The notes under the pieces are model-generated. The model did no database searches. It was not told the DNA's origin and saw only the letters and a program-made list of their open reading frames with translations. Positions 9,469-30,066 of a stretch of DNA of 64,000 nucleotides are shown here, in pieces. Each line of letters opens with the position of its first letter. Position 1 is the stretch's first letter. A program made the position numbers and the translations under genes. The stretch lies in the sequence record SRR31156797_601. One strand, written 5' to 3'.

Positions 9469-9471
9469 AAA

Positions 9472-10494: not shown

Positions 10495-10504
10495 TGGTCA
10501 GATT

Positions 10505-10559: not shown

Positions 10560-10597
10560 TGATATATGATTTTGAGATAGTTGTTATGGAGAAGGTT

Positions 10598-12094: not shown

Positions 12095-12105
12095 GGAGAA
12101 GATAT

Positions 12106-13101
12106 ATGTTAAGAAAAAGAAAAGGCGTTACAAGCCAGGTAATGGATAGGGTGGGATTGATTATTGCTTTGTTAGTAATAGTACTAATATTTTCCCTGAT
12201 GAACGAAAATTATTTCAGTATGCAGAATATGGTGAATATTTGTGTTGCAGCATCATTGATAGGATTGGTTGCAATTGGTGAAACATTCTTGATTATTTCA
12301 GGTTCAGTAGATTTGTCAGCAGGTTCAGTAGCTGCATTTGCATGTGTATTAAGTGCGTATTTATTGGACAATGGTATCAATACAGTATTTACGATAATAA
12401 TGGTTTTGATTGCTGGTGCAATAATTGGTTATGCTAATGGTTTAGCTGTTACAAAGCTGAAGTTGGAACCATTTATTGCTACATTGGCGACAATGTCAAT
12501 TGTACGTGGTATGGCATATATTATTTGTTCAGGACGACCAATATTTATAAATAATCAATTCTTTATAAGTATTGGCAGTCAAAGATTTTTTGGTCCTATG
12601 ACAATACCGGTAATACTGTTGATAGTATGTTTTATTATTTTTGGGATTATATTAAACAGAACAAAATTCGGACGCAGTACATATGTACTTGGCGGTAATA
12701 AATATGCAGCACGTTTAGCAGGATTAAATCCAACTAGAATTACTAGCAAGTTGTTCATGCTAACTTCAATCCTCGCATCACTTGGAGGAATATTGCTGGC
12801 TGCCAGAATGAACTCAGGTAATCCTTCTGCATCTGAAGGTCTTGAATTTGATGCGGTAACAGCTGCAGTTTTGGGCGGTACAGCATTCTCCGGTGGTGTA
12901 GGTACAATGCTGGGCACAGTGCTTGGTGTGTTTATTCTACAGGGGTTCAACACTGGTTTAATCATGGTAAACGTTCCTACATTCTGGCAAAAGGTTGCAA
13001 AAGGTTTGCTTCTATTAGTGGCATTGGCATTTGACTACTATAGAAAACTAAGGAGAGAGAAGAAACAGCTTGAGAAGAGCATGGAAGAATTTAACAAGTA
13101 A
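12106..13101 (+). CDS. Monosaccharide ABC transporter permease (AraH/RbsC-like)
   Basis: VDLSAGS, PFIATLATM, GGNKYAARLAG, AAVLGGT; multiple TM helices. Confidence 0.93.
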   Translation: MLRKRKGVTSQVMDRVGLIIALLVIVLIFSLMNENYFSMQNMVNICVAASLIGLVAIGETFLIISGSVDLSAGSVAAFACVLSAYLLDNGINTVFTIIMVLIAGAIIGYANGLAVTKLKLEPFIATLATMSIVRGMAYIICSGRPIFINNQFFISIGSQRFFGPMTIPVILLIVCFIIFGIILNRTKFGRSTYVLGGNKYAARLAGLNPTRITSKLFMLTSILASLGGILLAARMNSGNPSASEGLEFDAVTAAVLGGTAFSGGVGTMLGTVLGVFILQGFNTGLIMVNVPTFWQKVAKGLLLLVALAFDYYRKLRREKKQLEKSMEEFNK

Positions 13102-13162
13102 AGATTTAGTATTACAATACCATAGTTAAATGCTATGAGTTATAATAAACAAGGAGGAAAGT

Positions 13163-14218
13163 ATGAGAAAATTATTAGTCATTTTAATGGCACTAGTAAT
13201 GGCAACAGTAGTATTTGCAGGCTGTTCTCAAACAGAAGAAGCAGCAACAGAGGCAGTAGAGGAAGCAGCAGCAACACAGGCAGTTGAACAAGAAGAGGTG
13301 GCAGCAGACGATGAAATAGTCATTGCTGGTATTTACAAAATGGGCGATGCTGTATGGTTCATTGAAGAAGGTGCAGCAGCAGAGCAAACTGTAAAAGAAA
13401 TGGGTGCAAAAGACTTCAATTATATTGATGTACAAACAGACCCTGACCTATTCTTACAAGCTCTAGATAATGTTATCGTTCAAGGCGTTGATGGTGTATT
13501 AACATGTATACCTGATCAGCAATTGAGCCAAGTGGCTGTAGACAAGCTATCAGAGGCTGGCATTCCAGTAATCGCTTGCGATGACGCTCTTCAAGATGAA
13601 GATGGCAACAAATTAGCACCATGGGTTGGTATCAGCGGATACAAAATTGGTGAGTCATGCGGTAAATGGATGGTTGAATATATGCAGGAAAACAATCTAG
13701 TTGATGACGAAGAAGTCGGTATACTAATCCTTACAGCAGAAACAGTATCAAGCTGTGTACCAAGAACAGAAGGTGAATTGGCAGTAATCAAAGAAATGAT
13801 TCCTGAATTTCCAGAAGATAGAATCTTTAAAGGTGACCACTTAACAGACACAGAAACAGGCTATAATGCAGCAAGTACAATTATTACTGGTAATCCACAG
13901 ATCAAGAAGTGGATGGTATTAGGTGTAAGTGATGATGGAGCAGTTGGTGCAGTTCGTGCTCTGGAACAAGCTGGTCTGGATAAAGAATCATGTGCAATCG
14001 GTCTTGGCGGATACTTAGGACCTGGTGAATTCGAAAAAGAATATTCTGCATTCAAAGCAGCAGCTTACTTCTCAGCATATGACGTTGGAAGCACTTCTGC
14101 ATCATCTTTGATGAATAATATTTTAAACGGAACAGAAATTCCAATGGAATACGCAGTAGACGCAGTTATCGTAACAAAAGACAATTATAAAGAATTGATG
14201 CAGGAATACTTAGAGTAG
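13163..14218 (+). CDS. Monosaccharide-binding lipoprotein (AraF-like)
   Basis: Lipobox FAGC, acidic linker, KMGDAVWF..E (AraF-like), PVIACDD, SDDGAVGAVRALE. Confidence 0.85.
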   Translation: MRKLLVILMALVMATVVFAGCSQTEEAATEAVEEAAATQAVEQEEVAADDEIVIAGIYKMGDAVWFIEEGAAAEQTVKEMGAKDFNYIDVQTDPDLFLQALDNVIVQGVDGVLTCIPDQQLSQVAVDKLSEAGIPVIACDDALQDEDGNKLAPWVGISGYKIGESCGKWMVEYMQENNLVDDEEVGILILTAETVSSCVPRTEGELAVIKEMIPEFPEDRIFKGDHLTDTETGYNAASTIITGNPQIKKWMVLGVSDDGAVGAVRALEQAGLDKESCAIGLGGYLGPGEFEKEYSAFKAAAYFSAYDVGSTSASSLMNNILNGTEIPMEYAVDAVIVTKDNYKELMQEYLE

Positions 14219-14229
14219 TACTAATACAC

Positions 14230-14261
14230 TTAGGAGACATATCAAAAGGTGTGTCTCCTAA
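14230..14261 (+). terminator. Stem-loop after the SBP gene (mRNA stabiliser or partial terminator)
   Basis: TTAGGAGACAT...GTGTCTCCTAA inverted repeat. Confidence 0.65.
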
Positions 14262-14349
14262 TGCTATAATAAAGTAAAATAATAATGTTAAAAAGCTCAT
14301 GCAATAATTATATTTGCAATGGGCTTAGTGGCTTTTTGGAGGATGAATA

Positions 14350-15237
14350 ATGAGGATTACTAAATTGAATAGTCCATTATGTTTGCTCGGGGAAGGACCA
14401 GTTTGGAATGATACAGATAGTGCGATATATTGGCTGGATATATTAAATAACAAAATTTACAGGAAAAGTGATGGTAAGGAGAATGTCACATGTATCTGGG
14501 AAACTGATAGCAATATTGGTGGTATAGCTTTTGACAAAAACGGATATATTTTAGCTTTCGTAAAGGAAGGTGTGAAACGACTGGGATTAAGAAATGATGG
14601 CTTAGTAGATTGTGAGGAGCTTATTGTGTCATTTGATATCGCTGAAGATGAAAGATATAATGATGTTATAGTTGATCCAAAGGGGAGAATATTTGCTGGT
14701 ACAATGAAACCTACACATAAAGAAGGAAGGTTGATTTTATTTGAAAAGGGGAAGAATCCCAAAGTTGTACTTGAGCATCTTGGCATTTCAAACGGCATGG
14801 GATTTTCGCCGAATGAAAAATATTTCTACCATACGGATACTAAGCAAAGGATAATCACTCGATACAATTATAATGTAGAAACTGCTGAAATTCCATCTCC
14901 GTCTATCTTTTACACTGCATTGAGTGGGGATGGGTTTCCAGACGGAATGGCTGTTGATCAAAATGGTGAGATTTGGTCTGCATGCTGGGGAGCATTTCAG
15001 ATAATACACCTAAGCACTGAGGGTGAAATAATAGACAGAATAAAGCTAGATGCAAAGCAAGTGTCCAGCATTACATTTGGAGGAATTAATATGAATAAGG
15101 CATTTGTGACATCAGCGGGTATTGGTGCAGATGATGAGGAAACTTTCAAAAATATAGACGGAACAAAAATGGGTGGAAGTATATTTGAAATAGATATAAA
15201 TGCCGAAGGGAAAAAGGATTACAGAGCAGATATTTAG
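14350..15237 (+). CDS. SMP-30/gluconolactonase-family sugar lactonase
   Basis: LGEGPVW, RYND, SNGMGFSP, PDGM, ITFGG. Confidence 0.9.
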   Translation: MRITKLNSPLCLLGEGPVWNDTDSAIYWLDILNNKIYRKSDGKENVTCIWETDSNIGGIAFDKNGYILAFVKEGVKRLGLRNDGLVDCEELIVSFDIAEDERYNDVIVDPKGRIFAGTMKPTHKEGRLILFEKGKNPKVVLEHLGISNGMGFSPNEKYFYHTDTKQRIITRYNYNVETAEIPSPSIFYTALSGDGFPDGMAVDQNGEIWSACWGAFQIIHLSTEGEIIDRIKLDAKQVSSITFGGINMNKAFVTSAGIGADDEETFKNIDGTKMGGSIFEIDINAEGKKDYRADI

Positions 15238-15279
15238 GATATTTGGTATGGTTATGTTGATAACCGTTGGGGGAATCAG

Positions 15280-17058
15280 ATGTTAAATCGTATTAAACAC
15301 TATTATGGAAAGCAAAGTGTACAGTTTAAGCTATTAATATTTGTGATAATAATAGTTTATGTAGTTGTGCTTTCTTTGACCATACCTTATATGATTATTT
15401 ACAAACGAAGCATAGAAAATAGTATTAATAATCAAGCTATGCAGATAAATCAACAACTAAAAAATAGTGCTGAGGGGTATTTTGAGTCTGTTGAAATGAT
15501 GGTGGATAATCTGAATAAAAATGAAAGTGTTATTATGTTTTTAGAGCACTCATGGCAGTATTATGATGAGCAGCTTGAAGTTGAACAAGAGATTAAACAG
15601 GAATTATTTGATTTTAAAGATGTAAATAAAGATGTAATAGGTCTTGCAATTGTTAACAACAAAGGTGAAATGATTAGCAATGATATGGTTAGAATGGGAA
15701 CAGTGAACCTTACAGAAGACTATTGGTATCATAAATCTATAAGCAATGCAAATAGGATTCATATCAATTCAAAACTAACAGGTACAAATATAAAAAGTAT
15801 ATACGATTACTATTCTTCTGATGTTGTGGTTTCGTACTCAAAGGCACTAATTGACGATTCGGGTAATATTAATGGGGCGATACTCATTAATATTAAGCTG
15901 GGAACTATTGAAAATATATTCGAAAATGTTGGCTTTGGTGATGATGATTTCTTTTATATTGTAAATAGAAACGATGAAGTAGTGTATGCGCCGCTTAATG
16001 AAACTGTGCATCGTGTTAATACCGACTGGATTACAGGTAATGACGGAAGAATAGTAAAAACTATCCGTGGTACTGAATATCAGATTAACTATAAATATTC
16101 AAGCTATTTAGACAGCTATATTGTATCCGTTTTTTCATTGGAAGAGAGTGGCAGAACAATAAGAACTCTGATGATAGTATCTATTATGGTTTCAATTTTT
16201 ATGATGGTAATTGCTTCAATCTTTGGCTATCTTGTTACGAATAATTTTAAACGAAGGCTTGATTTGCTCAAGTCAATGATGCATACAGCACAGAAAGGTC
16301 AGCTGGAGGCACAATTTGCACCAACATATAATGATGAGATAGACGAGCTGGGTGAAAGCTTTAACCAAATGATAAGATCATTGAGCGGCATGGTGAAACA
16401 AATTGAGCATGACCAAAAGACATTGAGAAAGAGTGAACTTAAAACTTTTCAGATGCAGATAAAGCCGCATTTTTTATATAATACACTTGATACAATTAAT
16501 TGGATGGCACAAGAGTACGGCGCAGAAGATATTTCTAATATGGTTCTGGCACTTACAACTTTTTTCAGAATGAGTTTGAATAATGGAAAAGAGGTAATAT
16601 CTCTTGGCGAGGAGCTTGAACAAATTAAGAGCTATATGGAGATACAAAAAATCAGATATGAAAACAAATTTGATTTTTATATAGAATGCAGTGAAGAACT
16701 GATGAGCTATAGAGTTATAAAGCTGATATTGCAGCCTATTGTTGAAAATAGTATATACCACGGTATTAAGTACAAAAAGGGGAAAGGGAGTATCAGGGTC
16801 AAAGTTGAGAGAATAGATGAAAAAATAGAATTTCTGATTACAGATGACGGAATTGGTATAGATGATGATACATTACGAGATATAAACATTAATTTGAAAA
16901 ATGGTAAAAGCAAAGATACTGATAAGTATGGAATAGGTATTTATAATGTAAATGAACGTATTAGGCTGACATTTGGCAATGAATATGGACTTAGCATAAT
17001 AAGAAATCCTGAAAAAGGGATAACGGTTAGGATAGTAATACCTGTTGTTGAAAAGTAA
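15280..17058 (+). CDS. YesM-like sensor histidine kinase (Cache, HAMP)
   Basis: Two TM helices, HAMP (DEIDELGESFNQM), QIKPHFLYNTL H-box, LQPIVENSIYHG, DDGIG, GIGIYNV. Confidence 0.93.
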   Translation: MLNRIKHYYGKQSVQFKLLIFVIIIVYVVVLSLTIPYMIIYKRSIENSINNQAMQINQQLKNSAEGYFESVEMMVDNLNKNESVIMFLEHSWQYYDEQLEVEQEIKQELFDFKDVNKDVIGLAIVNNKGEMISNDMVRMGTVNLTEDYWYHKSISNANRIHINSKLTGTNIKSIYDYYSSDVVVSYSKALIDDSGNINGAILINIKLGTIENIFENVGFGDDDFFYIVNRNDEVVYAPLNETVHRVNTDWITGNDGRIVKTIRGTEYQINYKYSSYLDSYIVSVFSLEESGRTIRTLMIVSIMVSIFMMVIASIFGYLVTNNFKRRLDLLKSMMHTAQKGQLEAQFAPTYNDEIDELGESFNQMIRSLSGMVKQIEHDQKTLRKSELKTFQMQIKPHFLYNTLDTINWMAQEYGAEDISNMVLALTTFFRMSLNNGKEVISLGEELEQIKSYMEIQKIRYENKFDFYIECSEELMSYRVIKLILQPIVENSIYHGIKYKKGKGSIRVKVERIDEKIEFLITDDGIGIDDDTLRDININLKNGKSKDTDKYGIGIYNVNERIRLTFGNEYGLSIIRNPEKGITVRIVIPVVEK

Positions 17059-17079
17059 AGAAGTAAAGAAGAAGGACTG

Positions 17080-18300
17080 GTGCGAAAAATGTTAAAGCTG
17101 ATTATTGTTGATGATGAACCAAGAATCAGACGTGGTTTAATGAATTGTCTGCCTTGGGAAGATATGAACATAGAAGTAGCGGGAGAAGCTGAGGATGGAC
17201 AAGAGGCTATCGAACTTGCTAAAGATATCAAGCCAGATATTATGTTTTTGGATACATATATGCCTATCAAAAATGGTATTGAAACCGCACGCGAAATGGC
17301 AGATATTATGCCTGAATGCATATTAATAATAATATCAGGATATGACGAGTTTGAATATGCACAACAAGCTATTGAATGCGGTGTTTTTAGCTATATATTA
17401 AAACCTGTTGATAAGAAGAAATTGAAAGAAACTGTGGAAAAGGCAATAGAGTCAAAGATAAAAAATCAAACTATAAAGGAGTATTCCGAATGGGCAGAGA
17501 ATTATATTGAGGATAATGGACAACAATTAAAGAAAAATGTGATTTTGAGCTGGATAAAGGGGAATATTTCGACTTCCGAGATTGAAAAAAGGAAGAAGAT
17601 ACTACCTATTGATAAAAACGCAAAATACGGTATGTTTATTATTAATAAACTCAGCATTATGAAAAACAAGGAAGAGTCCAAACAGCCTATGTTTATGGGG
17701 TTTGAAGAAATTGCAGAAAAGTATGTAAAAGGAGTATTTGGCAATAACACAATACTGGCTGAATATGAAGAAGATAAATTTTTAGGATTTTTTGAATATA
17801 CAAGAGAAATGGACGTGTCAGACTTGGTGTGTCAGGCATCTCAAGCGATTGAATATCACTGTGGTTATATTTGTGTTAGTGATTATATTGTTGTAGATGA
17901 CGTTATGCAAATAAGTGATAAGTTCAGAGAATTAGTTGATATCTGTGAACGAAAAACAACACTTTCGCCATCTTTATTAATGGTTAAAGCATATGTGGAC
18001 AATAATTATACGGATCCAGAATTGACATTGAACGAAGTAGCAGAGAAACTTTTTGTTAGTGAGTCATACATATCAAGACTATACAAAAAGGAACTTGGAA
18101 AGACATTTAGTGAATATTTAACCGGACTTCGTATAGAAAAAGCAAAAGAGTACTTGCTTTATCCATACTCAAAAGTTTATGAAGTAGCGGAAAAGGTAGG
18201 GTATAAGACACAGCATTACTTTAGTAGAGTATTCAAAGCTGATGCAGGTATGACTCCCCTAGAGTATAAACTGCATAATGAGGGGAGAAAAGAGAAGTGA
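17080..18300 (+). CDS. YesN-like response regulator (receiver plus AraC HTH)
   Basis: IVDDE, FLDTYMP (phospho-Asp), YILKP; C-terminal VGYKTQHYFSRVFK. The start may be ATG 17089. Confidence 0.92.
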   Translation: MRKMLKLIIVDDEPRIRRGLMNCLPWEDMNIEVAGEAEDGQEAIELAKDIKPDIMFLDTYMPIKNGIETAREMADIMPECILIIISGYDEFEYAQQAIECGVFSYILKPVDKKKLKETVEKAIESKIKNQTIKEYSEWAENYIEDNGQQLKKNVILSWIKGNISTSEIEKRKKILPIDKNAKYGMFIINKLSIMKNKEESKQPMFMGFEEIAEKYVKGVFGNNTILAEYEEDKFLGFFEYTREMDVSDLVCQASQAIEYHCGYICVSDYIVVDDVMQISDKFRELVDICERKTTLSPSLLMVKAYVDNNYTDPELTLNEVAEKLFVSESYISRLYKKELGKTFSEYLTGLRIEKAKEYLLYPYSKVYEVAEKVGYKTQHYFSRVFKADAGMTPLEYKLHNEGRKEK

Positions 18301-20138
18301 AAAAAATCTTTTTAACTGTGTTTCCGATTGTTATTGTGATTTTTTCAATAGTATATTTTGTGTTCATTTGTCCGATTAAAAAAGATGAAGGTGTTAAATA
18401 TCTGCTGGGATTGTCGTTTTCTAATTTATCAGAAGCAGAGCAGACATCTATATACAATGCGATATCAAAGCAAGCAGCACAGGAATCTGATATAAGTATT
18501 GTAGTTACAAATGCATCAGGAAGCGTGTATACTCAGCTAAAAGACCTGCAAAAACTACAGTCAATGGGGGTAGATGCAATGATGGTATGTGCTGATGATG
18601 GGCAGGTCATAAAAAACGAAATAGCATCTTACTATGGACAGATTCCAATAGTTTTATTGGAGAAAAATATTTCTGGATATAATTATGATATATACTTTGG
18701 CGTAGATGATTATGAAATGGGCTATAATGCAGGGAAAGTAATTGGTGAGAGATTATCTGATGAAGAATGTACAGTAGTAGAGATAAAAGATGCAATTAGT
18801 GTAAAAACAACGCAGGAAAGAAGCAAAGGTTTCTTTGATGCACTTGAAGATTTTGATAATATTCAGATTTTTTCTATATTTTATGATCCATATGACATCG
18901 AGCTGGAAAATAAGCTAAGAAGCTTATATATGAATAACAAAGGTACGAAGGCGTTGTTTTCACATAATATAGATGTAGCAATTGCTGCAAAATTGGCAGC
19001 AGAACAAATGAATATGGATGATATATATATATTGAGTATCAGTAATATGGGATACAGTGACAAACATACTTTGGATAGGATGAAGAAAATTGATGGTATA
19101 TTCTCTTATAATTATTATGGCGAACACTTAAAGACTCTGATAGAAACGCTGATAGACGATAATGAAACAATTGTTAAAAAGAATATTTTGAATGTAACAT
19201 TACTAAATGGTAATGATTTATCGTGGTATATGGAGAATGGGGAAGTGTTTGCAGGCAAAAAGCACGAGATTGATAATGATACAGTAATTGGATACATTGG
19301 AAATGGTATTGATTCTGAGTATTATAATTCTACTCAAAATGATTTAAAAACTTTCTTTAAAAAAGAAAAATTGAATTTTATTGCATACTCTCTGATTAGC
19401 GATGTTTCTATAGAGAATATCGAATTTGCACAGGAAAAGGCATTTGACGAGTTGATTGAGCAGGGAGCAAAGATAATATTCTATACATCTTGCAATAAAA
19501 TAGATAATACTGAACTATTGAAAAAGGCAAAGATAAATGGGGTCAGAGTGATACTGCTGGATGAACATCTGCCATATACAGTGCAATATCCAATTACTTT
19601 TATTGGCAGCGATGGTTATGATGAGGGTTCTCTCGCAGCTGAATGGGTAGTTGACAGGGTTTATTCGGATAAAGAGGATATTGTAATTGCAGAGATAACA
19701 TCAGATATGAATTTGTTGTCTACTCAAGACAGAAGGGAAGGCTTCAGAAATGTTATCAATGGTTACCTTAGGATAAGTATTGTCCAAAGTGTTTATGGCT
19801 ATGATAGCTATGACGGCGGTGTGCAAGCTATGAATCAAATATTAGACAATTATGATGATATCAATCTTTTGTATGTTCACAATCAGGAAATGGCAATGGG
19901 GGCAATTGATGCATTAAAAGCTAGAGGGTATGACCCTGGGACGGGAATTAAGATAATAGTAAATAACGGGATGCTAAAGTCTGAAAAACTATTGAAGAAT
20001 GGTTCCATTAACTGCATCATTAAACGAAAAGGCACCCCTGCAGAATATATCAAAAGCTACTTTGATGACATATATTTAGGGTTGGTTATGAATCAGAAGA
20101 TAATTTTGGCAGATGAAGTAGTAGGAAATATTGAGTAG
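18297..20138 (+). CDS. Membrane-anchored protein with two tandem sugar-binding (RbsB-like) domains; probable sensory partner of the kinase
   Basis: N-terminal TM helix without a lipobox; two PBP-I repeats (GVDDYEMG..ERSKGF and GSDGYDEG..DRREGF..HNQEMAMGAIDAL); overlaps the regulator stop by 4 bp. Confidence 0.75.
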   Translation: MKKIFLTVFPIVIVIFSIVYFVFICPIKKDEGVKYLLGLSFSNLSEAEQTSIYNAISKQAAQESDISIVVTNASGSVYTQLKDLQKLQSMGVDAMMVCADDGQVIKNEIASYYGQIPIVLLEKNISGYNYDIYFGVDDYEMGYNAGKVIGERLSDEECTVVEIKDAISVKTTQERSKGFFDALEDFDNIQIFSIFYDPYDIELENKLRSLYMNNKGTKALFSHNIDVAIAAKLAAEQMNMDDIYILSISNMGYSDKHTLDRMKKIDGIFSYNYYGEHLKTLIETLIDDNETIVKKNILNVTLLNGNDLSWYMENGEVFAGKKHEIDNDTVIGYIGNGIDSEYYNSTQNDLKTFFKKEKLNFIAYSLISDVSIENIEFAQEKAFDELIEQGAKIIFYTSCNKIDNTELLKKAKINGVRVILLDEHLPYTVQYPITFIGSDGYDEGSLAAEWVVDRVYSDKEDIVIAEITSDMNLLSTQDRREGFRNVINGYLRISIVQSVYGYDSYDGGVQAMNQILDNYDDINLLYVHNQEMAMGAIDALKARGYDPGTGIKIIVNNGMLKSEKLLKNGSINCIIKRKGTPAEYIKSYFDDIYLGLVMNQKIILADEVVGNIE

Positions 20139-20648
20139 AATTATGAGTAGTTTTCGATCAAAACCTTGTAAGCAACTATATAAAAGCGACAAAAACCTAA
20201 AGTCTAATAGGAGGATATTTATTTCGAAATTCCTGTGGGATGGGCTGCAGGAACGTTATGTCGAAATATAAACGGGCAGAAAAGAAGAATTATTAATTTA
20301 TCATGAGTGAATTGAAATGATGACAGCTTATCACTTTGTGTAGGGCAGGCAACAGCTCAAACTTGTACAGAAGCTATATGATTTGTACAAAAGAGTAGTT
20401 TACTATTGGATATATCTATATTGCTTAAAGCATCTGTAATAGCCGTATTCTGTTATGTGAATTTATTTAACAATATCACTATTTTATGACTTTGGTAAAA
20501 TGACTTCTTATTATCTTGAATATTTAATAAACTGACCTAAAAACCACATAATGATATAATTAAATCAGTCAGATTACTGCAATAAATTTATTGTGTAATA
20601 TTCTAACTAATATGCAGACAAAGATTAAATGTGAGACATTTTGGGTAA

Positions 20649-20685
20649 AAAACAAGCCGCCCAAATTTAATGGAACAGCTTGTTT
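20649..20685 (-). terminator. Terminator of the lsrRK-cupin-lsrF operon
   Basis: AAACAAGC...GCTTGTTT inverted repeat; the A-tract on the + strand is a U-tract on the - strand. Confidence 0.55.
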
Positions 20686-20723
20686 GCAGTCAATTGTTCT
20701 GCAGAAATTAAATGAAAAGATAC

Positions 20724-21608
20724 TTACTTATTCTTTAGTTCTAAATACATATCATACGCTTCTTTTGAATCGATGCCTTTGTGTACGATTGCCTGTACAG
20801 CCTGAACCATTGCTAATGGGTCGTCTGATTGGAAGATATTTCTTCCCATATCTACGCCAGCTGCGCCTCTTGCTAATGCATTGTAACACATGTCAAGTGC
20901 ATCTTTCTCAGGAAGTTTCTTACCGCCTGCGATAACGATTGGTACTGGGCATGATGCCGTAACTGTTTCAAAATCGTCACAGTAGTAACACTTTACGATT
21001 TGTGCGCCGAATTCAGCAATCATTCTTGTTGCTAAGCGAAAATACTGTGGAGTCCTGGCCATTTGCTTACCAACGGCTACAACGCCCATTGTTGGGATAC
21101 CGTATGAATTACCTGCGTTAATTGCTTTTGAGATGTTATCAATTGATTCCAATTGACCTTCTGCACCAACAAATACTTGTAATGCCATACAGTCAGCGTT
21201 CATGCGAACTGCTTCCTCGATGCTGACACTTACTATTTCGTGGCTTAAGTCATCCTGTAATACTGAGTTACCTGATGATGTACGCAGAGCTACTGCCTTA
21301 TTGTGAGTCAAAGCTGGTTCAATGCATGATGACAGTGCACCACGTGTTCCCATAAATACGTCAATATATGGTGCTAGTGGTGGAATCTTTAAATCTAATC
21401 TTTCCAAACCTGATGTAGGTCCAAGAAAATAACCGTGGTCAAAAGCCAGCATTAATGTGTGTCCGCTTTCTGGGTTGAAAATCTTTGATAATCTTGATTT
21501 CATTCCCCAGCCATAATTGTTACAGCCCTTTACATGAAATCCATGAGTCTCTTGCGGTATTCCCACACCGTAGTCCTTAGTTACTTTGATGTTATCTGTA
21601 TCTGCCAT
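20724..21608 (-). CDS. lsrF: 3-hydroxy-5-phosphonooxypentane-2,4-dione thiolase LsrF
   Basis: MAD.D..K..KDYG.G.P, WGMKSRLSKIFNPESG, MLAFDHGYF.GPTSGLER, PVPIVIAGGKKLPE, GVDMGRNIFQS. Confidence 0.95.
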   Translation of the reverse strand: MADTDNIKVTKDYGVGIPQETHGFHVKGCNNYGWGMKSRLSKIFNPESGHTLMLAFDHGYFLGPTSGLERLDLKIPPLAPYIDVFMGTRGALSSCIEPALTHNKAVALRTSSGNSVLQDDLSHEIVSVSIEEAVRMNADCMALQVFVGAEGQLESIDNISKAINAGNSYGIPTMGVVAVGKQMARTPQYFRLATRMIAEFGAQIVKCYYCDDFETVTASCPVPIVIAGGKKLPEKDALDMCYNALARGAAGVDMGRNIFQSDDPLAMVQAVQAIVHKGIDSKEAYDMYLELKNK

Positions 21609-21625: not shown

Positions 21626-21967
21626 TTAATCATCTACTTCTATTTTGTCTGCCTTTTGGAAAGGTCCTAACATAAATACTGCCTTCATAGGAGTATCTCC
21701 GTTATTCTTTAAGTAATGTGTTTCTCCTGGTTCTGCTGTGATTAAATCACCGGGTTCACAGTGATACACTGTACCGTCAACAGCGATATCCAGCTTGCCT
21801 TCTAGAATGAAGAAACTTTCCTCCATAATGTCGTGGAAATGATTTTTGAAATCTTGTCCTGGCTGCAGAACAACAACTCCAGCACTAAGTCTTGGACCCT
21901 TTCTCAAATATTTTGGACCGCTATCGCCAAAACGATACTCTCTTTCGCTTTCTTTTACTAATTGCAT
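21626..21967 (-). CDS. Cupin-domain protein (HxH...E...H metal motif) in the lsr operon
   Basis: NHFHDIMEESFFILEG and EPGETHYLKN cupin motifs; RBS present; located between lsrK and lsrF. Confidence 0.88.
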   Translation of the reverse strand: MQLVKESEREYRFGDSGPKYLRKGPRLSAGVVVLQPGQDFKNHFHDIMEESFFILEGKLDIAVDGTVYHCEPGDLITAEPGETHYLKNNGDTPMKAVFMLGPFQKADKIEVDD

Positions 21968-22011
21968 GTTTACACCTCTGTTTATTTTTTATTAATACTT
22001 ATAGCTCTTGA

Positions 22012-23574
22012 TTATAGCCCTGGAGCTTTCCACATATGAGATATAAGTCCTTCGTCCGAGTTCTCCATCTGGCTATTATTAATTTGTTTCCAGTTTTCGA
22101 ATATAGCCAAGTACTTTTCGTGATTTTCTGTATTTGGATTATACACTTTTTCTATTTTTACCAAATTCTCTGCTGCTTCTTCTATGCTGTTATATATTCC
22201 CGCACCTACACCTGCACAGATTGCTGTTCCTAATGCCGTAGCTTCTTTAACCACAGGCACATGTACTTGAGCACCTAAAACATCTGATACTATCTGGCAC
22301 CAAAGGGGACTTTGTGATGCCCCTGAAGCAAAGATTATGTTATCTATTTTAGTATTATTTACTTCACCTAGTATTTTTGCATGACCCAAAGTAACCAATG
22401 CGGCATTTTCCATTAATGAGCGATAGAATGTACCTTTGTTAAATTTTTCGGGGTCAATATTGAAGTTTACGAAGCAGGGGGAAGGGTGTTTCCATTGCTT
22501 ATAATCCATAATGCTGGAGAATGAACACATCATACCATTTGAACCTACAGGTACTTTTTCTGTTATTTTTTCTAACTGTGTATATACTGAAGTCCCCTCT
22601 TTTTCAGCTGTCAAAGTTTCATACTGGCAGAATGCATCTCTGAACCAGCGCATCACTAGTCCCGGGTAGAACGCAATCATTTCCTGCTGCCATATATCTG
22701 ACAATACACCACAGTTAACACGAACCCTGCAGTCTTTGTCAATGATTGGCTTGCCTGAGTTATATTCCAGCTGCCAGAAGCTGCCTCCAAAAAGTGCTGC
22801 CTGACCAGGCTTAACTGCACCTACACCGATGGAACCAAGACCTGCATCTCCGCCTCCGGCAACTATCAGGCATTCATCAGACAGATTTAGTTCTTCTGCC
22901 AATTCTGGTAGTATTTTTCCGATGGCTTCACCACATTCGTATACTACTGGATAAATATCATCTTTTAATCCGCATTTAGCAGCAATCTCGCTGTCCCATT
23001 TTCTAGTTGATAAGTCAATCATTCCGGTTGTGCATCCATTTGATGGCTCTACGGATAAAATACCGGACAATCTGTAAGTAATCCAGTCGTTGAGCATGGT
23101 TACACAGGAAGTGTTATCATAAACGTCTGGCATATTGTTCTTTACCCATAGAATTCTTGGCAGTGCTCCCAGTGCGAAGGTCTGCCCTGAAATATTATAG
23201 ATTTCTCTTTCTATGTTCTCTGCTATTTCATTTAGCTGATATACTTCGTTGTCTGCTCTGGAATCAACATTGGCGCATGCCCAGATTTCTTTACCATTAT
23301 TATTATATAAAACTATACCCTCTCGCATGCTGGTTGATGCAATAGCTACAATATTTTTAGGGTTTATATTTGATTTAGCTATACTATCCTTAATGCAGTG
23401 TATCATGATTCCATAATTTGTTTTGACATCAAAGTCCATGGAATTTGGATATCTTGGATCTTCCTTATGGGTCCATTCCCGGGCAGAAACACTGATTTGA
23501 TTGCCGTCAAGATTAAAAATAACAGAGCGAATACTGCCTGTTCCTGCATCTATTGCCATCAAATACTTGCTCAT
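22012..23574 (-). CDS. lsrK: Autoinducer-2 kinase LsrK
   Basis: YLMAIDAGTGSIR, SMDFD, TSMREG, WACANVD, SGQT, GGSFWQ, W.APG. Start at ATG 23574 after GGAGG. Confidence 0.95.
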   Translation of the reverse strand: MSKYLMAIDAGTGSIRSVIFNLDGNQISVSAREWTHKEDPRYPNSMDFDVKTNYGIMIHCIKDSIAKSNINPKNIVAIASTSMREGIVLYNNNGKEIWACANVDSRADNEVYQLNEIAENIEREIYNISGQTFALGALPRILWVKNNMPDVYDNTSCVTMLNDWITYRLSGILSVEPSNGCTTGMIDLSTRKWDSEIAAKCGLKDDIYPVVYECGEAIGKILPELAEELNLSDECLIVAGGGDAGLGSIGVGAVKPGQAALFGGSFWQLEYNSGKPIIDKDCRVRVNCGVLSDIWQQEMIAFYPGLVMRWFRDAFCQYETLTAEKEGTSVYTQLEKITEKVPVGSNGMMCSFSSIMDYKQWKHPSPCFVNFNIDPEKFNKGTFYRSLMENAALVTLGHAKILGEVNNTKIDNIIFASGASQSPLWCQIVSDVLGAQVHVPVVKEATALGTAICAGVGAGIYNSIEEAAENLVKIEKVYNPNTENHEKYLAIFENWKQINNSQMENSDEGLISHMWKAPGL

Positions 23575-23602
23575 TTGCTTATCCTCCATATTTGTTGAAT
23601 TT

Positions 23603-24535
23603 CTAATCTTTGAGATTAACTAATGCTTTGGCTGTTTCTTCATCGGTAACTAAAATGTTGATGAAACCGCCTATTAGTGCTGAGTTAATAGCAGAAACTT
23701 TTTCTTCTCCGCCTGCTACGCCTATTACATTTTCGCTGTTTTTTAACATGTTTATATTTGTGCTTATTAATCTATCCAAGAGATCAACTTTTATTATATT
23801 ACCCTGCGAATCGTAGAAATGGCTTAGTATATCACCAACTGCTCCCTGCATCTTTAGCAGTACTAGATCGGACTGCTTGATTACATTGTATTTAAATATG
23901 GTAGCAGTGTTGCTTGTTGCACCTATTCCTACAACAGACATACTTGCTAATTGAGTCATTTCCAGTATGTCTTTTATTGATGATTCTTTTAGCAAATCCT
24001 TTGCAAGTTCTTTGGTGGACGCCAAAAGAGGAGCAGGAATCACATATATTTTTGGTGCTGGAGATTCTGATGTTCTTTTGTGGGCACCATTTATTATTGA
24101 TGATGTATAGAAAGATACACCACCGGATAGCGAAACCAGTGAGATAGGCTTATCTATTGCGTAGATTAAGTGACTTACAGTTTTTGATACTGTATCGCCA
24201 TATCCTATATTAATATAGTCACCCGGATTGCTCTTTTCTTCAATATATTGTGCTGCAGCCATAGCTAGTGAGTCGTTCAAATCCGACTTGCTGGCTGTAG
24301 GAATTACAAAAACATCATCTAATCCATATTTTTCCAATAAAGCTTTTTCTATATTGATTCTGTTCTCTAGGTTTCTGTTAATCTTAAATTGAACAATTCC
24401 ATCTGTTTTAGCTTGATTTAGATACTTAATTACTTTCATACGTGAGATACACAGTTTTTCTGCAATCTGCTGCTGTGTCATGCTCTCCATGTAATACAAC
24501 CATGCTATTTTCATTACTAAATTATCTTCATGCAT
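23603..24535 (-). CDS. lsrR: SorC/DeoR-family repressor LsrR
   Basis: IAWLYY.E..TQQQIA..L..SR HTH, LSGG, VGIGA, GAVGDI, GVAGG..K, LVTDE; lsr context. Confidence 0.9.
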   Translation of the reverse strand: MHEDNLVMKIAWLYYMESMTQQQIAEKLCISRMKVIKYLNQAKTDGIVQFKINRNLENRINIEKALLEKYGLDDVFVIPTASKSDLNDSLAMAAAQYIEEKSNPGDYINIGYGDTVSKTVSHLIYAIDKPISLVSLSGGVSFYTSSIINGAHKRTSESPAPKIYVIPAPLLASTKELAKDLLKESSIKDILEMTQLASMSVVGIGATSNTATIFKYNVIKQSDLVLLKMQGAVGDILSHFYDSQGNIIKVDLLDRLISTNINMLKNSENVIGVAGGEEKVSAINSALIGGFINILVTDEETAKALVNLKD

Positions 24536-24550: not shown

Positions 24551-24822
24551 ATTTGTTTTATAGTATATTGTAACATAATATTACTATGATGAACAAATGT
24601 AAATATTGCGAGATAATCAATTGTTTATAAAACAATCAAATGTTATATCTTTTCTACAGTATATCAGTATAATTTGTGAATGTCAACGAATAAATATTGA
24701 ATTATTTGATATTTGTGTTGACAAATTGGAGTATGTGAATTATTATAGTAAACAAATGATAGATTAACGCACAATAGTTTACAAATATATGCAGAATAAT
24801 TGTTTGACAAAGAATCATTTGT
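24551..24822. promoter_or_regulatory. Divergent lsr promoter region with repeated ACAAAT/ATTTGT boxes (candidate LsrR operators)
   Basis: Copies at 24551, 24593, 24672, 24711, 24721, 24752, 24781 and 24817; TTGACA at 24718-24723. Confidence 0.5.
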
Positions 24823-24860
24823 TAAACCAAGGATATTTTATAGAAGGAAGCGAGAGTGTA

Positions 24861-26384
24861 ATGGTAAAGAAAGATAAAGCCAAAGAACTCCTTAGAGTAA
24901 AGAACATCTGTAAGTGCTTCGGCAGCAATGTTGTACTGCAAGGTATTGACATGAGCCTTAGTTCAGGCGAAGTTCTGGCTCTTATCGGCGGCAACGGCGC
25001 GGGTAAAAGCACATTGATGAAGATAATAATGGGTATTTATCAATGTGATAATGGGGAGATATTTGTTGATGGCAATTTGGTTCACATGTCAAAGGCAGCA
25101 AATGCGTTAGCATCTGGCATATACATGGTTCCGCAGGAGCCAATGCTTTTTCCAAATATGTCTGTGGAAGAAAACATTGTAATGGGATTCTCAGGCAAGG
25201 CATTAGAATTACATAAAAAGATTATAAGCATAATGGAAGATATCGGCTGGGAGCTGGATTTAAACCGTAAAGCAAGTTCATTATCAATTGCAGAACAGAC
25301 TTTGGTTGAGATTATCAGAGGATTGTTAAGAGAAGCAAAAATATTGATACTGGATGAACCAACATCAGCTTTGACTTTTGATGAAGTTGAATCTTTCTTT
25401 AGAGTAATTCGAGATTTAAAAGAACAGGGAATCGGGATTATATATATTACTCACAGGCTGGCAGAAGTATTTGAAATTGCAACTCATGTATCTATTATGT
25501 GCGATGGTGTAATTACGCTGAATGGTCCGGTAACAGACTTCACTCGTGAAATGCTGGTACAGGGATTGATGCCTACAGACACAGAACATAAGGACACTGC
25601 AAAAACTCAAATAAATGACATAGATTATGATAATCTTGAACCAATATTTGAGTTGAAAGATTACAGTGGATATGGGTTTAACAATGTTTCCTTAAAGATA
25701 TATCCAGGTGAGATTCTTGGTATGGCAGGTGTTGTTGGAGCTGGTCGTACAGAATTAGCAAGAACAATTTTTGGCTTTGATAAGGTATTAGGAGGACGAT
25801 CAATACTAAATGGTAAGGATATTACAGGGCTAGATACAAAATATATATTAAAAGCAGGTATTAATTTCGTCCCAGAAGACAGACACAATCATGGATTATT
25901 CAAAATTAGCTCAGTTAAGGCAAACACTTCTTCAGCAATGTTATCCAGCAAAAAACTGGGCAGATTTTTCCTAAATAAGACTGTCGAATACGAGATGACA
26001 AAAGAATATGTGGATGACTTCCGCATAAAGGTGACAGGTCAGAATCAGCTGACAGGCTCACTTTCAGGCGGTAATCAACAAAAGGTAGTTATTGGTCGTT
26101 CTCTTTCTACCAAGCCAAAGCTAATAATTCTAGATGAACCTACTCGTGGAATTGATGCAGCAGCACGTATGGATGTATATAGAATAATTCACAAGCTTCG
26201 TAATGAAGGTGTTGCTATACTATTGATTTCTTCAGATTTGGAGGAAGTAATTGAACTGGCAGATCGTGCAGTTTCAGTCTATAACGGCAGAATAAATGGT
26301 GAATTCAAGAGAGACGAAATCAATATGGACAATTTAACTGCGGCATCATTTGGTTTTAATAATCAAGGGGAGGAAGGGAAATGA
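24861..26384 (+). CDS. lsrA: AI-2 ABC transporter ATP-binding protein LsrA
   Basis: GGNGAGKSTLMKI, YMVPQEP.LFPN, LDEPTSAL, LSGGNQQK, DEPTRGID..AR.D.Y. Start moved to ATG 24861. Confidence 0.9.
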   Translation: MVKKDKAKELLRVKNICKCFGSNVVLQGIDMSLSSGEVLALIGGNGAGKSTLMKIIMGIYQCDNGEIFVDGNLVHMSKAANALASGIYMVPQEPMLFPNMSVEENIVMGFSGKALELHKKIISIMEDIGWELDLNRKASSLSIAEQTLVEIIRGLLREAKILILDEPTSALTFDEVESFFRVIRDLKEQGIGIIYITHRLAEVFEIATHVSIMCDGVITLNGPVTDFTREMLVQGLMPTDTEHKDTAKTQINDIDYDNLEPIFELKDYSGYGFNNVSLKIYPGEILGMAGVVGAGRTELARTIFGFDKVLGGRSILNGKDITGLDTKYILKAGINFVPEDRHNHGLFKISSVKANTSSAMLSSKKLGRFFLNKTVEYEMTKEYVDDFRIKVTGQNQLTGSLSGGNQQKVVIGRSLSTKPKLIILDEPTRGIDAAARMDVYRIIHKLRNEGVAILLISSDLEEVIELADRAVSVYNGRINGEFKRDEINMDNLTAASFGFNNQGEEGK

Positions 26385-27403
26385 GCTTTTTCAAAAGATT
26401 TGGTAAAGTGCGGTGGTTATCAAGCCTGGTATTTCTGATAATACTAATCATTATAACTGGTATTATAAATCCTGCATTTTTCTCATATGGCAATATAATC
26501 AGCTTATTTAATAGTTCGGTGGTATTTGGGTTATTGGCAATTGGTATTTCATTTGTCATTATGACTGGGGAAATTGACGTATCCATTGGTTCAACAATGG
26601 GGCTGTCTGCAGCAATAGCAGGAACAATAGCACAGCAGGATGGAAGTATAGTCACAATGTTAATTTATGCAGTCCTGCTTGGGTTAATTGTGGGAGTATT
26701 CAATGGCGTTGGTGTTTCAGTTATTGGAGTTCCTTCACTAATATTTACTCTTGGAACTAATGGTATTGTACGAGGATTAGTATATATATACTCAAAAGGT
26801 CGTACAGTTGAGAATTTTGCTGGTGAATTTACAAATATCGGAAGTATGACACTTTTTGCAGATATAACTATGTATTTTATTATATTAGTTGCTATCGTAA
26901 TACTCGCAAATACCATATTAACTCGAACAAGACGGGGCAAGAACTTTATAGCTGTCGGCGACAACATAAATGGAGCTGAATTAATTGGTATTCCTGTTGT
27001 TAGAACAAAGATTATAGCATATGTACTATGTGGTGTGTTTGCAGGCATAGCAGGCGTGGTTTTTGCATCAAAATATGGGCAAGTAAATATCGTGGCAGGT
27101 ACAGGCTATGAGATGACTGCAATTGCAGCCTGTGTACTTGGCGGTGTCAGCCTATCAGGCGGATTAGGAAGTGTTGTTGGTGCTGCGATTGGTGCGGTTA
27201 TCATGTCAGCCATCTCAAGACTATTGGTATTTATAGGACTGTCATCAGACTTTGATAATACAATAAAAGGCATCATGCTGCTTACAATTGTTGTAGTAGA
27301 TGCACTGATGCATAGACGTTCAGTAGAAATGGCTAGAAGAGAAAGGCTTTCTGCAAGGGCATCGATTCACATGGAGAAAGCAGGTGACAGCAATGAAAAG
27401 TAG
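26381..27403 (+). CDS. lsrC: AI-2 ABC transporter permease LsrC
   Basis: IDVSIGS, FTLGT.G..RG, AVGDN..GA, IAACVLGGVSL.GG.G. Confidence 0.88.
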   Translation: MSFFKRFGKVRWLSSLVFLIILIIITGIINPAFFSYGNIISLFNSSVVFGLLAIGISFVIMTGEIDVSIGSTMGLSAAIAGTIAQQDGSIVTMLIYAVLLGLIVGVFNGVGVSVIGVPSLIFTLGTNGIVRGLVYIYSKGRTVENFAGEFTNIGSMTLFADITMYFIILVAIVILANTILTRTRRGKNFIAVGDNINGAELIGIPVVRTKIIAYVLCGVFAGIAGVVFASKYGQVNIVAGTGYEMTAIAACVLGGVSLSGGLGSVVGAAIGAVIMSAISRLLVFIGLSSDFDNTIKGIMLLTIVVVDALMHRRSVEMARRERLSARASIHMEKAGDSNEK

Positions 27404-28445
27404 TTTTAAGGATAAACTTTTGAACATTGTGAAAAGATGGGAATTCTTCTTATTCATAGTATTAGTACTGGAATTTGTAGTATTTGGCTCTGCAAACTTT
27501 GAGAAGTTTATGAGACTTCCATCAATCTTTTCCAGTATTAATAACTATATAAGTATTTGCATTATATCTTTGTTTGTAACTTTCGTAATGATTACAGGCG
27601 GTATTGATATACAGGCATCATCCTTGGTTGGACTGACTTCAATCATTATAGGAGTGCTGTGGAGTGATGCAGGATTGAATATCTGGACTGCGGTATTACT
27701 AGCAATAGTAACTGCTGGAATGTGCGGAGCCTTATCAGGATTTTTGGTTGCATACTGCGGTGTTCAGCCAATGGTCGTAACGCTAGGCGGCAGCTTTCTA
27801 TTTTCGGGAATTGCGCTGCTTATATCAGGACTATCTGAAACACCAGCATACAAGGGTATCAGCGGTTTCCCAGGAAAGAGTGAAGCAGGTGAATACATTT
27901 CATTTCGTGTATTGGGTAAATTAAAACTATTCGACACTATACCAATTCAGGTATTAATCTACCTTGCACTTATTATTATCTGCTATTTGTTACTGCATAA
28001 ATCAAAATATGGACGCAGAGTGTTCCTGGTTGGTGTTAATCCAAAGGCAGCTGAATACTCAGGAATAAACAGCAGACTGATAATTATGAGTACTTATATA
28101 TTGACAGCTGTTGGTGCTGCAATAGCAGGAGTACTGTTAACTGCTAATGTTAATTCAGCAAAGTATAACCTAGGATCAACATTCACGCTGTCAATTATCA
28201 CAGCAGTAGTATTAGGCGGTACATTATCAACTGGCGGCAAGGGAAGTATTATTGGAACGTCACTTGCAGCTATCGTAATCTGTATTCTGCGATATGGACT
28301 GCCGCTGTGTTTCGGTGTCAGCACACAGAACCTAGACTTACCAATTGGTATATTGCTGGTATTAGTTGTTGTTGGACGTGAATTGGCTGCAAATAATAAA
28401 GTTAAGGCATTTTGCAATAATTTTAGCAAAAAGATGTCAAAATAA
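27393..28445 (+). CDS. lsrD: AI-2 ABC transporter permease LsrD
   Basis: RWE, GGIDI, PMVVTLG, ISGFP, FLVGVNP.AA.YSG, ITAVVLGG. Confidence 0.88.
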   Translation: MKSSFKDKLLNIVKRWEFFLFIVLVLEFVVFGSANFEKFMRLPSIFSSINNYISICIISLFVTFVMITGGIDIQASSLVGLTSIIIGVLWSDAGLNIWTAVLLAIVTAGMCGALSGFLVAYCGVQPMVVTLGGSFLFSGIALLISGLSETPAYKGISGFPGKSEAGEYISFRVLGKLKLFDTIPIQVLIYLALIIICYLLLHKSKYGRRVFLVGVNPKAAEYSGINSRLIIMSTYILTAVGAAIAGVLLTANVNSAKYNLGSTFTLSIITAVVLGGTLSTGGKGSIIGTSLAAIVICILRYGLPLCFGVSTQNLDLPIGILLVLVVVGRELAANNKVKAFCNNFSKKMSK

Positions 28446-28514: not shown

Positions 28515-29657
28515 ATGAAGAAAATCATAACATTACTACTTGTATTAGCACTTGTATTTTCAATGGCAGCATGCAGTAAGACAGAAGAACCAACTGAAAC
28601 AGCTGCTCCAGCAGCTGAGGAAACAACTAACGAAGCTACAGAAGATGCTCCAGCAGAAGCTGGCACAACTGATATTGCAGGCAAAACAGTTGCTTTTATT
28701 CCAAAACTAACAGGTAACTCATTCTTTGAAGCTGCTAACGACGGAGCTCAAAAGTATGCTGAAGAGTGGGGCATTAGTGTTGAATACATGGGCAGTGCAA
28801 CAGCATCTGTTACAGATCAATTAGAAGTTATCCAACAAGCTATGGACGCAGGCGTAGATGCTATCTCTATCTCATCTGTTGACGCAACAGCACTAGATGA
28901 AAAGCTTCAAGAAGCTATCGATGCTGGTATCGTTGTAACAACTTGGGACTCAGACGTATCATCATCATCACGTTCATTGATGGTATCTCAAGGTACTGCT
29001 GAAATCCTTGGTGCTATGCTAGTAGACATGGGTGTTGATGCATTGGAAAACCGCGGTGTAGATACTTCAGGTGAAGTAAAATACGTATGGCACTATTCAC
29101 AGGCTTCTGTTGCTGACCAAAACTCTTGGTATGTAGCAGGTGAAGAATATATCAAAGAAAACTATCCAAACTGGGTAGCAGTATCTGATCCATTCTATTC
29201 AGAGCAGGACTCACAAAAATCTGTTTCAATCGGTGAATCAATTCTGGATGCTTATGCTGATGTTGATTTAATCATTTGTAACGACTCTACAGCTCTTCCA
29301 GGACAAGCTCAAGCAGCTCAAAATAAAGGTTTGACAAAAGATGATATCACAATCACAGGATTCTGTACTCCTTCAGGTATGACAGCATATCTAGATGCTG
29401 GCATCGTAGAACAGTGGGGACTATGGGACTGTGGTATCCAAGGTGCTTTAGGCTGTTACTTCGCTGCATACCTAGCAGCAGGCAATGAAGTTGCTGTTGG
29501 TGATACAATTGATGTTCCAGGAATCGGAGAATGTTCAATCGTTGCTAATGACGCACTAGTAGCTGGAGATGAAACACCAGCAACAAACAGTGGTGTTGTT
29601 CTTCTACCTGAACGTGTAGTATTCACAGAAGACAATGTAGCAGACTACAACTTCTAA
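28515..29657 (+). CDS. lsrB: AI-2-binding lipoprotein LsrB
   Basis: Lipobox AAC; AFIPKLTG..FF, TWDSD, VADQNSW, GLWD, G.VLLPERVVFT..N..DYNF. Confidence 0.9.
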   Translation: MKKIITLLLVLALVFSMAACSKTEEPTETAAPAAEETTNEATEDAPAEAGTTDIAGKTVAFIPKLTGNSFFEAANDGAQKYAEEWGISVEYMGSATASVTDQLEVIQQAMDAGVDAISISSVDATALDEKLQEAIDAGIVVTTWDSDVSSSSRSLMVSQGTAEILGAMLVDMGVDALENRGVDTSGEVKYVWHYSQASVADQNSWYVAGEEYIKENYPNWVAVSDPFYSEQDSQKSVSIGESILDAYADVDLIICNDSTALPGQAQAAQNKGLTKDDITITGFCTPSGMTAYLDAGIVEQWGLWDCGIQGALGCYFAAYLAAGNEVAVGDTIDVPGIGECSIVANDALVAGDETPATNSGVVLLPERVVFTEDNVADYNF

Positions 29658-29691
29658 AATGCTTAAAAACTAAGTAGATATTACAAGTGAT

Positions 29692-29730
29692 AAAAAGCTA
29701 TCCGAAGCAGCATGCTGAGGGTAGCTTTTT
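29692..29730. terminator. Bidirectional terminator after lsrB
   Basis: AAAAAGCTA...TAGCTTTTT inverted repeat. Confidence 0.7.
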
Positions 29731-30066
29731 AATTAATAATTTTTTCTGTAACACCTATATAATAAATTGACTCGCTGCCATCTTTTCCATCAAAAAAATT
29801 ATTTGACAACACAGGTACTGATAAGCAAAACTGACACAAAAATACTCTAGACAATTGGAATGCGATAATAGTATTAAGTAAATGTGCTGTATGGAAATAA
29901 GATTCCTCAACTGGCATTCAGTGATTATTATTCAGGCATATTCAGCTGATTTTTATATTAAATGATATTGGTATAAATATGGAAATAATATAGTGATGAC
30001 AGAGTAAAATCAAAATCATTCTGTCATTACAATTATTATTCACCTTTTGACACTTTCACGATTTTG

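Follow-up and report, generated by a model that had tools for sequence, protein, structure and literature searches.

The locus analysed here raises the question of how phosphorylated AI-2 is passed on to the thiolase LsrF where lsrG is missing. LsrK phosphorylates linear DPD, LsrG isomerises the resulting P-DPD, and LsrF transfers an acetyl group from the isomerised product to CoA, with release of DHAP (PMC8016206, partial text). The window, by which we mean the whole stretch of 64,000 nucleotides that was analysed, encodes an LsrK and an LsrF that both exceed their model cut-offs and no LsrG, and the pathway as encoded there has a hole at P-DPD isomerisation. Given the small cupin encoded between lsrK and lsrF, we lean, with considerable reserve, towards regarding it as a candidate metal-dependent phospho-DPD isomerase that bridges LsrK to LsrF where LsrG is absent.

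Organisation of the lsr locus

The features of the locus are as follows.

20724–21608, minus strand: lsrF, 3-hydroxy-5-phosphonooxypentane-2,4-dione thiolase (NF006081, 431 bits; cut-off 297)
21626–21967, minus strand: lsrK-linked cupin, 113 aa, STM4071-type family, candidate phospho-DPD isomerase (from Cupin_2 and position)
21973–21978, minus strand: GAGGTG, resembling a ribosome-binding site, 5 bases upstream of the cupin ATG (from sequence)
22012–23589, minus strand: lsrK, autoinducer-2 kinase (NF008187, 732 bits; cut-off 528)
23603–24535, minus strand: lsrR-like repressor, SorC/DeoR type (best match NF011947, 240 bits; cut-off 486)
24658–24686, minus strand: sigma-70-like promoter site, 11/12, extended -10, facing lsrR-K-cupin-F (consensus match only)
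24718–24746, plus strand: sigma-70-like promoter site, 11/12, facing lsrACDB (consensus match only)
24789–26384, plus strand: lsrA, ABC ATPase (NF011967, 533 bits; cut-off 586)
26381–27403, plus strand: lsrC-like permease (best match NF011961, below cut-off)
27384–28445, plus strand: lsrD-like permease (best match NF011612, below cut-off)
28515–29657, plus strand: lsrB-like AI-2 binding lipoprotein (NF011937, 300 bits; cut-off 384)

The lsrR-K-cupin-F arm is divergent from lsrACDB, and the cupin gene starts 44 bases past the end of lsrK and ends 17 bases ahead of the start of lsrF. The true start of lsrK may be the second methionine (23574), and that of lsrA is probably the in-frame ATG at 24861. 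The total of sigma-70-like sites in the region is no higher than in shuffled sequences.

LsrK and LsrF pass the NCBIfam cut-offs; for LsrR, LsrA, LsrC, LsrD and LsrB the lsr models are the top matches, at scores below cut-off. The window LsrF also matches the E. coli LsrF structure at 341 bits. The closest solved relative of the window LsrB is 6DSP (427 bits), named AI-2-binding protein LsrB, and from this similarity we infer that the window LsrB may bind AI-2 and that AI-2 may be consumed through the locus. With the LsrK and LsrF equivalogs accompanied by LsrR and an ABC importer, the Lsr system is present in the window. The locus shares with the known system (lsrRK / lsrACDBFG) the divergent lsrR-K and lsrACDB and the LsrK and LsrF over cut-off, and differs from it in that lsrF lies in the lsrR-K-cupin arm and that both lsrG and lsrE are missing.

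The surroundings are rich in carbohydrate genes. Positions 5885–20138 (plus strand) hold a sugar-acid cluster comprising a short-chain dehydrogenase, an enolase-superfamily dehydratase, a KDPG-type aldolase, a sugar-kinase-like ORF, an ABC importer, a lactonase and a two-component-like pair, as well as a protein of 613 aa that has two sugar-binding domains. Several carbohydrate clusters are found at 35497–63833; they include genes for GH66, a glycerate kinase and a GH130 phosphorylase, together with three genes of the alpha-amylase family. The minus strand at 30067–33675 encodes a secreted protein of 1202 aa, which combines Listeria-Bacteroides repeats with a Big_9/cadherin-like domain.

The cupin and its family

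The preliminary description of this DNA had noted a 113-aa metal-binding cupin between lsrK and lsrF, and this is borne out: the ORF is intact, begins with ATG behind the GAGGTG element and encodes a 3-His-1-Glu motif. Synonymous sites are saturated relative to an 83%-identical relative, which identifies the ORF as a real gene; together with 440 homologues at E<=1e-8, this rules out a spurious ORF. The closest relatives, at 82-84% identity, occur in Clostridia assemblies, and the closest hosts overall are Clostridia, Acidaminobacter and Atribacterota.

The protein matches Pfam Cupin_2 at 63 bits (cut-off 27). Its score against MannoseP_isomer is 20.5 bits, below the cut-off of 23.6, and no match was obtained with the LsrG and ABM profiles NF007791 and PF03992. 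The predicted metal motif, H-x-H-x4-E-x6-G followed by a distal histidine, comprises H43, H45, E50, G57 and H84; in the alignment with solved cupins, H43, H45 and E50 fall on the H-x-H-x4-E motif and H84 on the distal histidine. The neighbouring E49 was rejected as a metal ligand, the solved cupins having Y or T at that position. In an alignment of 83 sequences, Y11, R12, S16-Y20, G24, P25, the metal residues, D107 and K108 are invariant. When the alignment was widened to 31 rows, of which the enterobacterial clade contributes 13, R12, G17, P18, Y20, L21, G24, H43, H45, E50 and D107 were retained in all rows and H84 in 30. A strict pairing of E49 with K108 is not supported, as three rows combine E49 with S108.

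The AlphaFold2 model is a single cupin barrel (pLDDT 88.8) whose top structural matches are all cupins. The first is 7ZVY, a cupin titled phosphomannose isomerase (Z 16.2, rmsd 1.9, 108 residues, 21% identity), a lead that lies within 1 Z of five other structures; further matches, at 16-25% identity, include KdgF (Z 15.3), the DMSP lyase DddK and dioxygenases. As these tie with 7ZVY, the fold assigns no reaction. The solved small cupins as a group (Thermococcus 'phosphomannose isomerase' 7ZVY/7ZVM, KdgF, DddK and TM1459) resemble the window protein in being single barrels (Z 14.8-16.2, rmsd 1.6-2.0), and 7ZVY, whose activity is known from its entry title, shares the H-x-H-x4-E motif. They differ from it in their low identity (16-25% in structural alignments) and in that sequence matches begin only after the N-terminal motif. 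Their reactions differ from one another, and none assigns a function. When the family profile was compared with PDB sequences, quercetin 2,3-dioxygenase came first, at 73 bits summed over two cupin domains; it shares the cupin motif, but is a bicupin, whereas the window protein has a single domain. Matches in the ESM Atlas were to generic cupin clusters only. The complex prediction for LsrK and the cupin scored 0.00 (mark 0.32) and gave no answer either way.

A close counterpart is found in Salmonella, where WP_001173080.1 (STM4071 by position) is 48% identical over 112 residues (E 3e-39), lies directly after lsrK (13 bases) and has the same metal residues and N-terminal motif. The window protein thus shows the full-length similarity, the shared N-terminal motif and the place directly downstream of lsrK that define the STM4071-type family and, judged by sequence and position, is the orthologue of the Salmonella gene after lsrK. 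The Salmonella protein is annotated as hypothetical or as 'mannose-6-phosphate isomerase'. The Salmonella-type locus differs from that of the window in having lsrG and lsrE, and its cupin clade has C or S at position 49 and S at position 108, where the window protein has E and K.

LsrG, (4S)-4-hydroxy-5-phosphonooxypentane-2,3-dione isomerase (NF007791), catalyses the reaction that we propose for the cupin. The two proteins are of similarly small size, and in alphaproteobacteria lsrG occupies the slot after lsrK; they are unrelated in sequence and fold, with an ABM domain in LsrG as opposed to a cupin barrel with a metal motif (PMC12274486, partial text).

Linkage to lsrK

We scored 112 loci, mostly fetched through the cupin, of which 101 carry it. 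By a distance rule, the cupin gene adjoins lsrK in 83 of these 101. Among the other 18, lsrK sequence is present upstream in 14 and two loci end less than 200 bases from the gene; the metagenome loci L049 and L091, both short, have no lsrK match in about 1 kb upstream. Because the scored loci had mostly been fetched through the cupin, additional searches were led by LsrK, covering 401, 301, 86 and 301 genomes. In a 301-genome sample of one order, the same 16 genomes carry both lsrK and the cupin, and 285 carry neither.

These searches yielded 26 lsrK genomes, counted without centres and genomes handled before; three of them correspond to loci to which the cupin had already led. The cupin directly follows lsrK in 23 of them. 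The remaining three, with divergent kinases, have neither the cupin nor lsrG beside lsrK. Two of these three are the Atribacterota genomes G714 and G717, in which a distant member of the cupin family lies outside lsr loci. The third, G398, has an unrelated cupin after an LsrK-like kinase that is over cut-off (589 bits); this cupin (L110:1391-1804) falls outside the family (32 bits), and the slot may perhaps have recruited a cupin a second time here.

The position after lsrK is common to four phyla, and it is kept where lsrF has moved to the transporter operon. In one case, P0384, LsrK and the cupin are fused in a protein of 653 aa, with an LsrK part of 710 bits and no methionine at the start of the cupin; this fusion is a single-member cluster from one contig. 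A Deinococcus replicon carries lsrK, the cupin and an lsrR-like fragment, without lsrF on that replicon, and since it looks like a remnant it says little.

Distribution of the cupin and lsrG

The reported absence of an LsrG-like gene was confirmed for the 64-kb window, in which neither tblastn nor phmmer with Salmonella LsrG gave a match. A hidden lsrG in the gaps at 20139-20723 and 29658-30066 was likewise dismissed, as no LsrG-like ORF is present there. LsrG exceeded its cut-off in none of the 26 lsrK genomes, all outside Proteobacteria, whose assemblies may be incomplete. It was also not detected in seven more genomes behind cupin loci, possibly incomplete assemblies too, nor was lsrG found in the incomplete assemblies of the 82-84% identical relatives. 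Weak ABM matches of 27-48 bits, away from the lsr locus, occur in five of the 26 genomes, compared with 100-121 bits for lsr-linked LsrG of alphaproteobacteria and 193 bits for the Salmonella control. It is unlikely that these weak matches in Bacillus-type genomes represent LsrG, given their scores, their location off the locus and the fact that B. subtilis rings likewise.

Four of the five alphaproteobacterial loci fetched (Rhizobium, Sinorhizobium, Paracoccus and Thalassospira) have lsrG directly after lsrK, in the slot of the cupin; in Roseicitreum it lies elsewhere in the lsr cluster. Klebsiella, Enterobacter and K-12-type E. coli loci have lsrG without the cupin, and an LsrG-like match in Pantoea has no lsr genes around it. 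Across 39 non-redundant loci with full lsrK and lsrB, 31 carry the cupin only, six lsrG only, two both and none neither, in a sample biased toward the cupin, through which most loci were fetched.

Strict mutual exclusion of the two genes across lsr loci, expected if one substitutes for the other, does not hold. Salmonella has the cupin, lsrG and lsrE in one locus, and an IS-flanked E. coli island with a Salmonella-type lsr locus (L113-L115) has lsrG and lsrE beside the cupin in all three examples examined. Co-occurrence with lsrG, which the preliminary description had named as evidence against its proposal, is therefore a fact in these relatives. Of 5426 E. coli genomes, 125 carry the cupin. 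Taxon names place both proteins in Citrobacter, Edwardsiella, Serratia fonticola, Brenneria and Entomohabitans, and outside E. coli the enterobacterial co-occurrence is based on plasmid-collection records and such names. The lsrE gene is present in all four loci with both cupin and lsrG and absent from the other 108. The enterobacterial cupin keeps its metal residues and shows a dN/dS of about 0.07 (dS near saturation), so that it is not a decaying spare, and a decayed copy was ruled out as an explanation of the co-occurrence.

Evolutionary history

The LsrK tree comprised 42 rows, namely 39 representatives at less than 90% identity (with a Klebsiella row removed) together with Deinococcus, Roseicitreum and G398; it was rooted at the midpoint, and its non-proteobacterial rows had mostly been fetched through the cupin. 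All lsrG-bearing rows form one proteobacterial branch (support 86/85), which is sister to the cupin-bearing Deinococcus row (support 100/99). With G398 uncounted, the tree requires one change of state for lsrG and three for the cupin. A single clade of the lsrG-only rows was rejected (p-AU 5e-9), for a group named after the tree had been seen and under the midpoint root.

On this tree the cupin is absent only from lsrG-bearing lineages. The simplest reading is that it was lost only where lsrG was present, and hence that the cupin is, as far as sequences can tell, probably the older partner of LsrK and LsrG a later gain. We infer a single gain of LsrG in Proteobacteria, followed by loss of the cupin in several of the lineages that carry LsrG and by its retention, in diverged form, in Salmonella-type loci. 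The idea that the cupin replaced LsrG survives in part. Outside Proteobacteria the slot is indeed filled (23 of 26 genomes with the cupin, 0 of 26 with LsrG), alphaproteobacterial lsrG sits in that same slot, and the chemistry suits a metal cupin; 'replacement' is too strong a word, and the direction is probably the reverse.

Divergence of the retained copies was also apparent. In one lsrG-bearing pair, the cupins are 71.7% identical and the LsrKs 83.8%, a difference of 12 points, whereas the gap is at most 5.7 points in 67 lsrG-less pairs, which are not independent of one another. This larger drift is what partial redundancy would give. E49 is lost in 13 of 13 enterobacterial rows and kept in the 18 others; as it is not a metal ligand, its loss is a lead only. 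There was no sign that Enterobacterales recently imported their cupin from the clade of the window, the enterobacterial sequences having a long branch of their own in a weakly supported tree.

A fuller account, which we advance tentatively as a possibility short of probable, is that phospho-AI-2 was originally isomerised by the cupin, as a metalloenzyme of Bacillota, Atribacterota and other phyla, that LsrG arrived late, in Proteobacteria, and displaced it, and that the Salmonella-type copies, with E49 lost, shifted to a second AI-2 reaction alongside LsrE.

Proposed reaction and alternative explanations

In the proposed mechanism, a divalent metal held by H43, H45, E50 and H84 would bind phospho-DPD through its C3 and C4 oxygens and promote a 1,2-hydrogen shift, by an enediolate or a hydride route, to give 3-hydroxy-2,4-pentanedione-5-phosphate, which LsrF and CoA would cleave to acetyl-CoA and DHAP. 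The phosphate would be held by the conserved R12, K19 and Y20, and D107 may assist proton transfer. Such a keto-alcohol shift between C3 and C4 is the chemistry of metal-dependent cupin sugar isomerases. In lsrG mutants, lsr transcription is raised (PMC2728841, partial text, citing Salmonella work); the Salmonella cupin therefore covers the loss of LsrG incompletely.

The most serious alternative, which we consider rather unlikely, is that the cupin carries out another AI-2 step at LsrK or close to it. Cyclic or hydrated AI-2 might be ring-opened or dehydrated, or another stereoisomer or DPD analogue might be handled with LsrE; isomerisation in LsrG-less bacteria would then be spontaneous or the work of an unlinked enzyme. 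This would account for the retention of the cupin beside lsrG under purifying selection in Enterobacterales and for the confinement of lsrE to the four loci with both genes, in none of the other 108. It also agrees with the closer tie of the cupin to lsrK than to lsrF (it stays when lsrF moves, and one fusion exists) and with the place of KdgF, an enzyme with a ring-opening role, among the top structural matches (Z 15.3). That LsrK acts on the linear form (PMC8016206, partial text) points the same way. However, another AI-2 step leaves unexplained both why the cupin is absent from lsrG-bearing lineages alone and why lsrG occupies its slot. Moreover, the enterobacterial copies lack E49 (13 of 13) and may not speak for the window protein. 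Ring forms are usually interconverted by RbsD/FucU-type proteins, and genes of this type occur beside either the cupin or lsrG. In the lsr clusters examined, they lie at L013:12371-12766 beside the cupin (a Lacticaseibacillus plasmid) and at L121:2436-2927 beside lsrG (Roseicitreum).

We regard it as improbable that the cupin lacks catalytic activity and, as a ligand-binding or structural partner of LsrK, serves to channel or buffer reactive P-DPD. The near-fixed place after lsrK (83 of 101 cupin loci) and the one fusion would fit such a role, but the full 3-His-1-Glu site and the conserved extra polar residues are typical of enzymes, and the isomerase step would be left unfilled in lsrK genomes without LsrG.

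Less probable still is a dioxygenase activity, in which O2 would be used to cleave phospho-AI-2 in its enediol or beta-diketone form, as modelled on acireductone dioxygenase and Dke1. The closest hosts (Clostridia, Acidaminobacter and Atribacterota) are anaerobes, and a cleaving enzyme would be in competition with the co-transcribed LsrF. The best PDB sequence match of the family profile, quercetin 2,3-dioxygenase at 73 bits, favours this reading, although the score adds up two cupin domains, as does the observation of 2-phosphoglycolate as a product of P-AI-2 (PMC2728841, partial text).

Finally, an unrelated passenger gene, which the distant relatives outside lsr loci in G714 and G717 and the lack of an lsrK match in about 1 kb upstream in L049 and L091 might suggest, is already close to refuted by the identical presence with lsrK (16 of 16 positives among 301 genomes), by the same position in four phyla and a fusion, and by the rise of STM4071 with the lsr genes (PMC4804515, partial text).

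Earlier mentions of the gene and significance

The link to lsrK is not new. A gene for a 'mannose-6-phosphate isomerase' has been described as invariably adjacent to lsrK in Salmonella, Spirochaeta and the B. cereus group, and was placed in print in 2012 as a member of the LsrR regulon with a possible role in AI-2-P processing (PMC3420918, partial text); we equate it with the Salmonella cupin by position, not by accession. STM4071, labelled hypothetical, is one of the lsr genes listed as raised in a fabR mutant (PMC4804515, partial text), STM4071-80 have been grouped as lsr (PMC11000858, partial text), and STM4071 has instead been grouped with the neighbouring carbohydrate island (PMC3604774, partial text). 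The accessible portions of PMC12274486, PMC2561040 and bioRxiv 2024.08.19.608533 contain nothing on the cupin. In the literature searched, which excluded the primary LsrG and LsrF papers, most subscription papers and supplements, we found no proposal of the cupin as an LsrG analogue and no tests of it.

The cupin is accordingly a real, conserved and uncharacterised member of the Lsr system, and the appearance of its link to lsrK in print since 2012 limits the surprise. AI-2 is an interspecies signal, and the lsr-cupin locus is found in many gut Clostridia. If the phospho-DPD isomerase reading is correct, it would complete AI-2 catabolism in Gram-positive and anaerobic bacteria, assign a reaction to a family that at present carries no label beyond 'cupin domain protein', represent a second, unrelated solution to P-DPD isomerisation and provide a marker for AI-2 consumers. 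The comparison also points to an unexplained gene within the LsrR regulon of Salmonella.

Other variation among lsr loci

Some loci have a gene for an AEC-type transporter (about 310 aa, PF03547) on the same strand after lsrF (L042:313-1245, L094:3711-4652 and L095:355-1287), and similar ORFs occur in the metagenome lsr loci L030, L040, L052, L055, L079, L087 and L088; PF03547 was confirmed in 3 of these 10 ORFs. A possible role for this transporter is the export of AI-2 or of a product. Directly after the cupin, an aldo/keto reductase gene (L023:9118-10062) and a ureidoglycolate-lyase-like gene (L030:10352-10885) were found in one locus each. All five alphaproteobacterial lsr loci fetched (L116:2927-4180, L118, L121, L122 and L123) have no lsrF and encode a class II aldolase of 415-450 aa instead, and the LsrF step therefore seems to have a non-orthologous alternative.
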